This document shows, piece after piece, positions 1,070 to 21,291 of a DNA stretch of 64,000 nucleotides. The position numbers and the translations under genes are program-made. The notes under the pieces were generated by a model. It was not told the origin of the DNA and did no database searches. It saw nothing but the letters and a program-made list of their open reading frames with translations. Origin of the DNA: an uncultured Methylomirabilota bacterium (GTDB lineage Bacteria > Methylomirabilota > Methylomirabilia > Methylomirabilales > 2-02-FULL-66-22); contig OY970067.1 in NCBI GenBank assembly GCA_963705305.1, positions 960,001 to 1,024,000 on the forward strand. The letters are read 5' to 3'. How positions within the stretch are numbered: position 1 is the first letter of the stretch; every line of letters begins with the position of its first letter.

Positions 1070-1264
1070 TCAGGATGACCCCTGCCGGGGTCCCTGGACT
1101 TTCGCTGCCGTCTGCCACAGCCGCTTGATCTCCTGCAGCACCTCAGCCCGCCGGAGGACCCCGCGGCGTTCCAGGACGTTCAGCAGCGCCTCGAACTCGA
1201 ACGCCTGGGCCAGGACGACTTCTTCCAGGGGCACCGCACTCCCACGTTCCATTGGCGTGGCCAT
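1070..1264 (-). CDS. Small hypothetical protein
   Basis: MATPMERGSAVPLEEVVLAQAFEFEALLNVLERRGVLRRAEVLQEIKRL; GAGG RBS upstream; helical composition. Confidence 0.55.
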   Translation of the reverse strand: MATPMERGSAVPLEEVVLAQAFEFEALLNVLERRGVLRRAEVLQEIKRLWQTAAKVQGPRQGSS

Positions 1265-1468
1265 GGGCAACCTCTTCTCGTGATCCCGGCACGGGCGGGC
1301 TACGGCATCAGAAGCTAATGGGTCTTTAGTTCGAGTCCTGTATGGCTCCCCGGGCAGGGCGAATCTGATGCTATGAAAGCGCTGCGCCTCCTGAGCACTG
1401 CAGCGTATGCTGCGGTCGACCCGGGAGGGGGTGCGGGCGGGGTCCCCGCTGAGAGGAGGCGCGCTGCC

Positions 1469-2544
1469 ATGGAGTACATCGCGTTCGATGCCCACAAGCG
1501 GTACACCCAGGTCTCGGTGGAGACGGAGGACGGCCAGCGCCGGTACGAGGGCCGGATCGACCACGTCCGGGGCGCCCTGCAGCAATTCCTCGCGACCCGC
1601 GAGCGGGGTTCGCCGGTGGCGGTCGAGACCGTCGGCACCTGGGACTGGATCGTGGACGAGATCGAAGCGGCCGGCCAGGTCCCGCAGCTGGTCCACGCGC
1701 GCAAGGCGAAGCTCCTGCGCGGCCTGGGGACCAAGACCGACACGCTCGACGCGCGGGGGCGGACCCGGCTGCAGCGGGCCGGGACGCTCCCCACGGTGTG
1801 GATCCCGCCCGGCCCCCTCCGGGATCAGCGGGATCTCCCCCGCACCCGCATGGTCCTCACCCGGGAGCGCACCCGGCTCAAGAATCGGATCCACGCCACC
1901 CTGGCCAAGGACCGGCCTGCGCCTGGAGGGGACGAGCGATCTCTTCGGGCGCCGCGGGCGCCAGTGGCTCCTCACCACCGCCCTCCCCCTGCTGGCGCCG
2001 CACAGTCGGGACCGCCACGGAGCGCCTCCTGGAGCAGCTGGACGTCGTGTCGGCCCAGATCGAGGGCTTCGAGCCGCGCCGGCGCGCGGTCTTTGCGCCC
2101 ACCCCGGAGCTCCAGCTCCTCCGGACGCTCCCCGGGGTCGGGTGGGTGCTGGCCGTGGTCCTCCGCCTGGAGATCGGCGACATCCGCCGCTTCCCGCGCG
2201 CGGCGCAGCTCGCCGCCTATGCCGGCACCACGCCGCGCGTGCACGCCAGCGGGGGCCGCGTCCACTACGGCCAGCTCCGGGTGGACATCACTCGCTACCT
2301 CAAGTGGGCCTTCGTCGAGGCGGCGAGTCCCACCGACCGCACGCGCCCCGCCCGGCCGCACCGCCACGTCCGTTGCCTCTATACGCGCATCCAGCAGCGG
2401 AAGGGGCACGCGACGGCAATCGGCGCGGTCGCGCGCCACTTGGCGGAAGCCACCTATTGGATCCTGACCAAGCGGGAACCGGACCCGCGACCCGGCGGCC
2501 CGCCCGGCGTCGTCCACGGAGGGACCAGCGCGAAGTGCCCATGA
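1469..2544 (+). pseudogene. IS110 transposase (DEDD recombinase), frameshifted
   Basis: [35 protein letters not shown] motifs split over three frames (shifts near 1910 and 2003). Confidence 0.9.
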
Positions 2545-2630
2545 GCGGGAGACGCTCGGAATCTGATTGCGACGTCCCTCCGGGACACCATCATGCCGCG
2601 ATGACGGCGAAGATATGGTTCCGATGACAC
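2520..2630 (+). ncRNA. Putative bridge RNA/seekRNA of IS110 copy 1 (boundaries approximate)
   Basis: AGTGCCCAT 2534-2542 = revcomp of right flank 2800-2808; GAGCG/CGCTC hairpin; GAATCTGAT 2559-2567 = left flank+core 1361-1369. Confidence 0.75.
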
Positions 2631-2924
2631 CGGCACCCGAGGCCCGCAACCCGTAGGGAGGGAGACCGAACCACCCACAACCGCGCGCGGGATCGTCCGC
2701 CGGCCCTGCGCCCCACCTTCGGGCGCGCTGGGCCGAGAGGGGGTTGTGTATCTTCCGATCGGCACTTTATTTGTATTGCCCGGAGCAGCGCTTTCAGATA
2801 TGGGCACTGGGAGGATAGGATTTCGGTGGAGTGAAAGCTAGCCCCGCGATTCAGCCGCGCCGGTTTGCGTGGAGGTCATTGTAGGCTTTGGCTGCGAGTG
2901 CATGTGACGCAGTGTCCGGAGAGT

Positions 2925-3869
2925 TCACGTCGCCGGGTTCCTGCCGATGTACGCGGGTTTGGTTGGCTTCCTTGAGGAGGCGGTCAGCCGCAGCGTGCCA
3001 TACCCTCTCTTCAGAGATAGCTCGCAGTGTTGTCTCGATGCCAGCTTGGAGAATTTCCTCATCTTCTTTCGCCACGCCGGAGCCGCGTAGAGCTTCGCGC
3101 CGATGTAGTGGAATTCGCTCTGAGTCCTGAAAAAGAACCCCGGTTCTCCAGTTAGGCTTGCATAAGGCAGTGTGCTGACGTCGTCAAAGTCCAGCATGAG
3201 GAGATGTTGTTCGGCGTACTGGTTGACTTTGCTATTCAGGCCAAGGACGTAGTCTCTCGCTTCCGAAACGGAGAGGCGCTCACGCGTTTTGATAGCACCG
3301 CTAAGCATGTCGCGGAGGGTGATGTCGGTTATTCGCCCTTTGGGCACCCAGAATGTCAGGCGCGTGTGGTGGTAGTACGACTTTGGGCAGTACACATCAA
3401 AAGAGAAATCACGAATCCGCGGATTGTCCGCGACAAGAAGGTCGAGAATGTGGGCGGTCGAAACGGGGGGAATCTCTTTCCACGCTCTCTCGATGAACAT
3501 CCGAACAAAAGAGATGTGTCTTTGAACGTCCCGCAGGTACGTTGGAACGTACTCGCCATAGTCGGCCTTCTCGCGTTGCTTGTACAGCACACTGAGTAGG
3601 CGACCGTACCGGGGCGGGAAGCCTCGGCGCGTTATCCATTCCTTGCCAAATTGGCCCCTAATGGCGTCGTGGTTCTTTGCGCTGTTTCCGACCAAGCGCA
3701 GCATGGCCACGGCGACATGATGGACGGTGTAGTACAACCGGTTCACAGCTCCGAGACGGGTCTGGCCGCTCGGTGCAAGGGCCTCGGCTTCCGCCAGCGT
3801 GTCAAGCGCCTTCGCCATCCACCAGTGCGCGTGTTCCAGCGATTTGGAGTTGTAGGGCCGTCGCTTCAT
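2925..3869 (-). CDS. HEPN (UPF0332-like) domain fused to a C-terminal AEP/primase-like domain
   Basis: N-term AVNRLYY..H, KNH, REKADY; C-term HLLMLDFD, SEFHYIG, GYGTLRL; lower GC than surroundings. Confidence 0.75.
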   Translation of the reverse strand: MKRRPYNSKSLEHAHWWMAKALDTLAEAEALAPSGQTRLGAVNRLYYTVHHVAVAMLRLVGNSAKNHDAIRGQFGKEWITRRGFPPRYGRLLSVLYKQREKADYGEYVPTYLRDVQRHISFVRMFIERAWKEIPPVSTAHILDLLVADNPRIRDFSFDVYCPKSYYHHTRLTFWVPKGRITDITLRDMLSGAIKTRERLSVSEARDYVLGLNSKVNQYAEQHLLMLDFDDVSTLPYASLTGEPGFFFRTQSEFHYIGAKLYAAPAWRKKMRKFSKLASRQHCELSLKRGYGTLRLTASSRKPTKPAYIGRNPAT

Positions 3870-20183: not shown

Positions 20184-21291
20184 GTGAAACAGGATACCAT
20201 ATTGTGGCCCTCGACGACAGCAAGCGCACCCTGGTGATGGGATCCTCCGGCCCGGAGCGGACGCGCCGGAGACGCGCTCGATCCCGAACGAACCGCGGCA
20301 CCTCCGCCGCCTGGTGGAACGCCTCAAGCGCGAGGGCCCAGTGAGGGTCTGCTACGAGGCCGGACCGTCGGGGTACGATCTCTACCGCCAGCTCACCGCC
20401 CTCGGCGTCACCTGCTAGGTCATCGCCCCCGCCCTGACGCCCCGCAAACCGGGCGACCGGATCAAGACCGATCGGCGGGATGCCGCCAAGTTGGTCCGCC
20501 TCTTCCGGGCTGGCGAGCTCACGCCCATCCGCGTGCCGGATGAGGCGGGGGAGGCGGGGCGCGATCTCCTCCGGTGTCGGGAGGACGTGCGGGAGGATCT
20601 CCTCTGCTGGCGCCATCGCCTGGTGAAGTTCCTGGCCCGCCACGGTCGGGTGTACCGCGAGGGCCGGAACTGGACCCAGCGCCACTGGGCTTGGCTCCGC
20701 CGCCAGTCCTTCCCCCTCCCGGCGTTGGACCGCACGTTGGCGGAGTACCGCTGCACGGTCGAACAGCTGCTCGCCCGGGTCGCGGACCTGGACCGGGAGC
20801 TTGCCGGCCTGGCGGACACGGAGGCCTACCGCACGCCGGTGGGGTGGCTCCGCTGCTTCCGGGGGATCGACACCCCCGCGGCCATGACCCTGCTCACCGA
20901 GCTCGGGGACTTTCACCGTTTCCCGCACCCGCGGTAGCTCATGGCGTACCTCGGACTCGTCCCCAGTGAAGACTCGTACGGCGATCGAGAGCGGCGCGGC
21001 AGCACTACCAAGGCCGGCAACACCCACGCCCGGCGCATCCTGGTCGAGGCATGCTGGCACTACCGGCACCCGCCGCGGCTCGGGGCCGCCCTGGCCCGCC
21101 GGAGCCAGGGACAGCCCCCGGCCATTCGAGCCCACGCGTGGCGGGCCCAGCTCCGCCTCCATCGGCGGTATCGGCATCTCGTCGGCCATGGGAAACGCGC
21201 CCCGGTCGCCGTGGTGGCGTGCGCCCGCGAATTGGTCGGCTTCCTCTGGGCCGCGCTGACACACCCGGACCCGGTCGCCCTGGCGGCGTAG
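20184..21291 (+). pseudogene. IS110 transposase, frameshifted with nonsense mutations
   Basis: VALDDSK, VCYEAGPSGY, IKTDRRDA, AYLGLVPSE; shifts near 20203 and 20242; TAG at 20416 and 20935. Confidence 0.92.

Follow-up and report, generated by a model that had tools for sequence, protein, structure and literature searches.

A probable IS1111-group insertion sequence with a bridge RNA reading its target and its own joined ends in an uncultured Methylomirabilota bacterium

The systems closest to the one dealt with here, an insertion sequence of the IS110 family found within a 64,000-nucleotide stretch (hereafter “the window”, meaning that whole stretch) of the genome of an uncultured Methylomirabilota bacterium (contig OY970067.1, GenBank assembly GCA_963705305.1), are those whose recombinases work with an RNA encoded by the element itself. 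The seekRNAs of the IS1111 elements ISEc11, ISPa11, ISKpn4 and ISPst6 (Siddiquee et al. 2024, PMC11187229) are located in the non-coding region 3' of the DEDD transposase gene and carry their top-strand match 5' of the bottom-strand one, the elements having subterminal inverted repeats of 11-13 bp, a target within a repeated sequence and a promoter that forms at the circle junction. The bridge RNA of IS621 (Durrant et al. 2024, PMC11208160; Hiraizumi et al. 2024, PMC11208158), in contrast, is located in the left end upstream of the gene, has the reverse guide order and belongs to an element with inverted repeats of 2-3 bp; it has a target loop and a donor loop, each reading both strands around a 2-nt core (CT), and the term handshake guides was given to its bases past the core that agree with the partner DNA (PMC11208158). 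For 93% of IS1111 elements a bridge RNA has also been predicted, located in the right end, with donor-binding bases noted in multi-loop structures (PMC11208160), and ISPpu9 of Pseudomonas putida, an IS110-family element residing in repetitive extragenic sequences, is accompanied by a small-RNA gene (Ssr9) 3' of its transposase gene, the RNA modules occurring also without a transposase gene (PMC12288879). All of these comparisons are by description.

At a probability that we put at about 0.9, window positions 1368-2802 represent an IS1111-group member of the IS110 family with a bridge RNA/seekRNA reading both the target and the element's own joined ends. The element is an ordinary new example of the mechanism described in 2024, and this kind of RNA is already known. 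It agrees with the four seekRNA elements (PMC11187229) in the position of the RNA, the guide order, the length of the inverted repeats and the repeated nature of the target, and differs from them in that its RNA starts about 40 nt inside the coding sequence, that its two target matches overlap only at the 2-nt core and that its protein is only distantly related to annotated relatives (~37%). With IS621 it shares the presence of a target loop and a donor loop, the reading of both strands around a 2-nt core (TG here) and core-adjacent bases that match the partner DNA after strand exchange, but, unlike in IS621, few bases read the right half of the donor, and recognition of the ends may depend in part on the long inverted repeats. 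What the locus adds is a natural, well-resolved example of an IS1111-type bridge RNA, coming from uncultured bacteria of soil and sediment, in which the 13-bp target is defined, real empty sites fix the core as TG, the donor loop can be read and handshake-like bases are present, together with a subfamily of dozens of natural guide-target pairs (about 60 non-redundant ones here), which could help to set the IS1111-type pairing rules, less worked out than those of IS621.

Fold and guides of the RNA

The original prediction, made from the window alone, proposed that around the transposase stop lies the readable target loop of a natural bridge RNA, which is supported by the covariation of the fold, the covariation of the guides with the flanks in two sets of loci, the IS1111 guide order and the two frameshifts in the open reading frame. 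Every string that it quoted is present in the window at the place given for it: AGTGCCCAT at 2534-2542 is the reverse complement of 2800-2808 (9/9), GAATCTGAT at 2559-2567 equals 1361-1369 (9/9), a GAGCG/CGCTC hairpin (GAGCG-GGAGA-CGCTC, 2543-2557) separates the two, a second stem, ACCAT-CAT-GCCG...CGGC-GAAGAT-ATGGT, follows at 2587-2619, and the first guide indeed overlaps the last codons of the decayed open reading frame, whose stop TGA is at 2542-2544. The 9/9 matches are thus real, but as guide matches they overshoot into the ends of the element itself, by 2 nt and 1 nt, because the guide strands also match the AU of the element start and the A of the element end. A single 9-mer pair alone is weak evidence, and the case rests on comparative evidence.

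For this, 78 related loci from many uncultured lineages were retrieved with the C-terminal piece of the protein. Overlapping the end of the gene and continuing 3' of it, these loci have a common scaffold (AGCGCG, a variable segment, a hairpin, another variable segment and UGAUUGCGA, followed by a second arm ...UCAUGCC...GGCGAAGAUAUG...), for which RNAalifold, given 47 distinct sequences, yields a predicted structure of 20 pairs, a compensatory change being seen in 14. A covariance model built with our own structure has a single match in the window (2503-2643, 121 bits), matches only the three copies of the element in the genome of origin, and finds the two-loop fold, on whose conservation the original prediction had been staked, in 63 of the 78 related loci (46 in the seed and 17 outside it). 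In the covariance-model alignment, 85.9% of the cells are paired, versus 70.2% in shuffled alignments (61 distinct rows; 0/500 shuffles reach this), 23 of the 29 pairs have changes on both sides (in the target arm, 8/8 pairs of helix 2 and 4/4 pairs of helix 4), and the covariation score is 0.399, versus 0.140 when shuffled (0/500) and at most 0.096 with the partners slid; these figures come from an alignment fitted to the model, which favours its structure, although the independent RNAalifold result agrees in direction. One G-U pair is invariant (58/58), which fits the + strand, i.e., the strand of the gene. The 130-nt RNA itself folds at -59.7 kcal/mol (z -3.25), a value equalled by 2 of 200 shuffles.

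The guides were compared with the flanks by anchoring the ends of the relatives on the inverted repeats and then matching the two variable loop strands to the sequences on either side. Two sets were used, a genome set of 54 parsed RNA records (40 distinct by guide pair, with several mis-parsed rows kept, which lowers the cognate score) and an independent metagenome set of 80 loci fetched with the N-terminal piece (60 scaffold matches, 53 distinct) and subjected to the same fixed tests. In the genome set, the 5' guide agrees with the right flank at 163/224 positions (n=32; 101.8 +/- 5.4 expected) and the 3' guide with the left flank at 107/140 (n=28; 37.7 +/- 6.1 expected); the corresponding values in the metagenome set are 145/196 (n=28; 91.4 +/- 5.9 expected) and 95/125 (n=25; 39.9 +/- 6.0 expected), and none of these four scores was reached in 20,000 permutations, counts which, it must be held against them, overstate the significance and are not true probabilities, since the relatives share ancestry. 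Among close relatives the guides differ and the scaffold does not, so that the comparison of homologues, which had been suggested as a check, favours a guide function in both sets of loci.

Positions of the features within the window (Table 1)
Feature	Position	Strand	Remarks
Left target half (LT) GAATC	1361..1365	+	Equals RNA 2559-2563; within the genus-wide intergenic repeat
Core TG, left copy	1366..1367	+	Empty sites GAATC-TG-GGCACT; same rule in second family member
IS1111-group insertion sequence	1368..2802	+	1435 bp including right core copy; ends set from empty sites; three genome copies
Left subterminal inverted repeat TGAAAGCGCTGC	1374..1385	+	Perfect 12-bp inverse of 2785-2796; kept in relatives
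DEDD recombinase pseudogene	1469..2544	+	Frames 1469-1909, 1914-2009, 2014-2544; frameshifts at GACC 1910-1913 and 2010-2013; Pfam, tblastn, alignment, dN/dS
Bridge RNA / seekRNA	2505..2634	+	Closing stem 2509-2514 with 2623-2628, target arm, donor arm; fold, covariance model, covariation
Target-binding arm	2518..2581	+	Stem 2518-2525 with 2574-2581, invariant CGCG/UGCG stem, internal loop, distal hairpin 2543-2557
Target loop 5' strand AAGUGCC+CA	2533..2541	+	Pairs with top strand of core+RT (TG GGCACT); 8/9 nt match 2801-2808; permutation test positive
Target loop 3' strand GAAUC+UG, then AU	2559..2567	+	Equals LT+core and first 2 nt of element (1361-1369); UGA invariant in family; permutation test positive
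Donor loop 5' strand ACACCAUCA	2585..2593	+	Reverse complement of TG+ATGGT versus element start TG+ATGCT; weak covariation with left end
Donor-arm distal hairpin GCCG...CGGC	2595..2608	+	Helix 6, 95.4% paired; 4/4 pairs with changes on both sides
Donor loop 3' strand AGAUA+UG, then G	2611..2618	+	Equals right end, core and first flank base; matches 2796-2803
Right subterminal inverted repeat GCAGCGCTTTCA	2785..2796	+	Pairs 12/12 with 1374-1385; kept in relatives
Core TG, right copy	2801..2802	+	From empty sites
Right target half (RT) GGCACT	2803..2808	+	Complementary to RNA 2534-2539; continues the left flank's repeat

The remaining anatomy is that of the IS1111 group as well. The subterminal inverted repeats are perfect over 12/12 positions (about 11-13 bp being characteristic of the group), and the longer of the two non-coding segments is the downstream one, as the group requires (101 nt before the start codon, 1368-1468, and 258 nt after the stop, 2545-2802). 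PF01548 (the N-terminal DEDD, RuvC-like domain) matches window 1469-1912 (E 6.2e-12, 46 bits versus a Pfam cut-off of 29) and PF02371 (the C-terminal Tnp domain) matches the translated pieces (E 8.3e-20), with a G-x-x-P-x-x-x-x-S/T-G motif visible in the translation, in which the residue after the G is T, versus L in the IS1111 logo. The best plasmid relatives are ~37% identical (best plasmid match over the N-terminal domain) and are annotated only as “IS110 family transposase”.

Target site, core and joined ends

The last ~40 nt of the left flank are an intergenic repeat occurring at many places in sister genomes, and a paralogue in the genome of origin joins the left and the right flank into one continuous sequence. 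A search of 21 genomes of the genus for CGAATCTG and GCACTGGGAGG separated by a gap of 0-14 nt gave 14 matches, 12 of which, in 7 sister genomes, read CGAATCTGGGCACTGGGAGG; because uninterrupted copies of the repeat read so, the empty site is GAATC-TG-GGCACT, the core is TG and the element spans 1368-2802. The boundaries originally proposed, with the target GAATCTGATATGGGCACT, a core GAT and an empty site GAATCT-GAT-ATGGGCACT, have to be given up in favour of this, the latter 18-mer being absent from the genome except for one match at 3 mismatches. The same core rule is seen in a second, distant family member, for which 5 empty sites GGGG-TG-ACGTGTC were found in its own genome (that of L042), within the repeat flanking the occupied copy, and none in three other genomes searched.

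The real target is the 13-mer GAATCTGGGCACT, contacted as GAAUC+UG and, reverse-complemented, as UG+GGCACU. In the genome of origin this 13-mer has no exact match; it has 4 matches with one mismatch and 88 with up to two, near the chance expectation, several of these inexact sites being repeat copies that have diverged. That GAT stands at both ends of the window copy is a coincidence; the right ends of the relatives vary (GAG, TAG, TAC or TAT before A-TG) while the left side always keeps TG-AT. The target repeat itself (window 1328-1367 and 2803-2850; loci L097-L110) reads ...GTTCGAGTCC..GGCTCCCC..GCAGGGCGAATCTGGGCACTGGGAGGAGAGG..GCTGG... and is present in several copies per genome. The possibility that the left flank (GTTCGAGTCC) is the 3' end of a tRNA gene was rejected, as ARAGORN found 0 tRNA in 7 loci, and no Rfam family matched the repeat at E up to 0.1 in 6 loci.

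The second loop is complementary to the joined ends of the element, strongly so in its left-donor strand and weakly in its right-donor strand. The donor test on the genome set used 33 distinct element/RNA pairs (of 38), with three rows re-registered by hand. The donor 3' strand after the hairpin has the form A-NNN-A-UG, in which NNN agrees with the right end at 94/99 positions (62.5 +/- 4.3 expected; NNN is invariable in the metagenome set and hence uninformative there) and the A and T before the final G agree at 66/66, including in the rare ACG and GTG variants. The two RNA bases that follow agree with the first two right-flank bases at 41/66 (24.2 +/- 3.6 expected) in this set and at 19/34 (10.7 +/- 2.4 expected; 8/20,000 permutations) in the metagenome set, and in this these one or two flank bases resemble a handshake guide. 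The donor 5' strand, ACCAUCA, fits the element start TG-ATGCT with one mismatch. Of the CAT and AGAT that the second stem had been said to expose, AGAT does lie within the real donor guide, which is, however, the 7-nt AGATA+TG (right end and core), whereas CAT belongs to the weak right-donor guide (ACCAUCA versus TG-ATGCT). The donor ends, when joined, are predicted to read ...GCGCTTTCAGATA-TG-ATGCTATGAAAGCGC..., giving the circle junction TTTCAGATATGATGCTATG, so that the junction tcAGATG suggested earlier is corrected to the predicted TTTCAGATA-TG-ATGCTATG. Direct pairing between the two donor-loop strands (A/C-U-C with G-A-U/G), which seemed to covary in a few sequences, failed in the TAC and TTCA groups and was abandoned.

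Taken as a mechanism, an RNA of ~130 nt (2505-2634) beginning within the last ~40 nt of the gene would fold into a closing stem bearing two arms, each with an internal loop offering two guide strands, of which the 5' strand would pair with the top strand of the core and right half-site and the 3' strand, having the sequence of the left half-site and core, with the bottom strand. The first arm would thereby read the target GAATC-TG-GGCACT and the second the joined element ends ...CAGATA-TG-ATGCT.... As the 3' strands extend 1-2 nt past the core into the right half of the partner (the target loop by AU and the donor loop by G), they would match the product junction after strand exchange in the manner of handshake guides. 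By analogy with the described systems, the recombinase presumably binds this RNA, which would then direct the recombination. Joining window 2776-2802 to 1368-1369 would also form TTGCCC, 17 nt and TATGAT, a putative sigma-70-like promoter existing only in the circle, comparable to the promoter formed at the circle junction of the four seekRNA elements (PMC11187229), and many relatives have TTGACA or TTGACG in place of TTGCCC.

Gene decay and the alternative readings

In the window copy the gene is broken: where intact relatives have a single frame of about 355-365 residues, it takes three frames (tblastn), and both frameshifts are common to all three genomic copies. At each of them a conserved Tyr codon TAC has been altered in the same way, into GAC with an extra C (GTACG to GGACCG); the gene has three further GTAC Tyr codons, which are unchanged. 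In the close relatives from metagenomes (87-92% DNA identity), both sites are intact in L135 and L136, the site-2 break recurs in L134 and L138, and site 1 of L138 is GAC without the extra C. That the frameshifts are a long-read artefact is contradicted at site 2 by contigs of run X1 (which may be the source sample), identical over 1985-2349; the coverage of this run leaves out site 1 (1863-1984), and contigs of other runs read TAC after 1909.

In the C-terminal part, the dN/dS ratio (nonsynonymous to synonymous substitutions) is 0.61-0.76 in pairs of frameshift carriers, 0.23-0.24 in pairs with an intact copy and 0.71-0.95 in a wrong-frame control, values that point to relaxed selection and decay rather than to programmed frameshifting. 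A different view would be that the three copies are still autonomous, the GACC sites being programmed +1 frameshifts that give a full-length recombinase, in keeping with which both sites share GGACCG(G/C)C and both need +1, site 2 occurs also in the about 90% identical relatives L134 and L138, and the three genome copies are near-identical though broken; the dN/dS values just given, the ordinary Tyr codon that the intact relatives have at both sites and the probable inability of GAC to re-pair in the +1 frame nevertheless make this very unlikely. If the gene is decayed, as we take it to be, the copies could move now only with a helper enzyme. It is conceivable, though on balance doubtful, that a recombinase-dead guide-RNA carrier still multiplied, with a helper recombinase, no longer seen in this genome, moving it in trans; the copies are near-identical, have both frameshifts in common and reside at different loci, so that at least one of them would have arisen after the gene broke. 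Were this true, elements whose RNA encodes the donor and target address in cis could persist as RNA-only parasites of related recombinases, and the repeated change of TAC to GAC with an extra C would need an explanation of its own.

Even less probable is a role of the guide segments not as RNA but as the element's single-stranded DNA, of the kind known from the end recognition of IS200/IS605. The covariation of stems and guides alone cannot separate RNA from single-stranded DNA of the same strand, but the invariant G-U pair and the many other G-U pairs in the helices speak for RNA, the recombinase is of the DEDD plus Ser type and not HUH, and in four IS1111 members the downstream RNA co-purifies with the transposase and is needed for transposition (PMC11187229). 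That the 9-mer matches are due to chance, or are a leftover target duplication without guide function, is next to impossible, for although one such pair is no great rarity in 64 kb (neither 9-mer is found in the window outside its two places, with expected counts of 0.29 and 0.41, and at least two matches are given by 3/100 and 5/100 shuffles, respectively), both matches sit in the two strands of one conserved internal loop, and these two positions follow the flanking sequences also in relatives whose targets are quite different, in both independent sets, cognate scoring above non-cognate.

Several observations nevertheless weigh against an RNA-guided IS1111-group element. Outside its inverted repeats the element extends by 6 nt at the left end and, at the right end, by 4 nt and the 2-nt core (a count that depends on the side to which the core is assigned), lengths slightly off the 7 (or 6) and 3 bp expected of the group and different from the 7 and 3 of the four seekRNA elements (PMC11187229). 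The right-donor guide is weak (85/190 versus 72.2 +/- 4.7 expected; 101/20,000 permutations, some rows being mis-anchored), and there is little support (56.7% paired) for the 3-pair helix between the donor arm and the junction. Folding of the whole of 2500-2800, as originally proposed, shows these 301 nt not to be unusually stable (z -0.96). Rfam has no family matching the RNA (a scan of 1200-3000 gave two chance-level matches only), a promoter and terminator scan found neither a promoter-like site nor a terminator in the integrated element, and the two contigs from the RNA-library run X15, which belong to a relative, span 1391-1909 only, outside the RNA region.

Copies in the genome and other loci

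For this genome the element is something ordinary, three dead insertion-sequence copies in an intergenic repeat. The genome (one contig, 5.65 Mb) contains these three copies at different loci, differing over their first 1366 nt by one substitution and one 1-nt indel, and, as is typical of the IS1111 group, they are inserted at one specific sequence in a single orientation: GAATCTG precedes 3/3 copies, and GGCACTGG follows 2/3 and GTACACT the third. This third copy (G000:C1:354720-356190) is outside the repeat, at a half-matching site in which the left half and core agree at 7/7 positions (GAATCTG) and the right half, GTACACT, departs from the GGCACT expected by the guide. No close copies were found in 20 other genomes of the genus searched, only short matches to other IS110-family genes.

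The tail of the window copy (67 nt; window 2736-2784) is sharply unlike the 89-nt tail of the other copies (G000:C1:2106679-2106767 and 354720-354808) and is of the type seen in the close relatives L135, L186 and L138; the first 62 nt of the other copies' tail have no match in any fetched sequence, and run X1 carries that tail as a loose end at 2735. The difference between the tails suggests recombination or gene conversion between two related elements.

A second, distantly related IS110-family gene is found at about 20239-21138 of the window (+ strand); it has about 27% identity to relatives of the first, and the RNA model has no match there. Among the relatives, L013, L020, L024, L028, L069 and several metagenome loci have a common left guide, ACCGU, reside in a palindromic repeat, GGGTTCGAATCCCGT-TG-GGGAATCGAACCC, and differ in their right guides, and L082 carries two tandem copies of the guide RNA (251-388 and 543-680), each with a right end of its own (AAAGCGCTTTCAGAG-ATG...).

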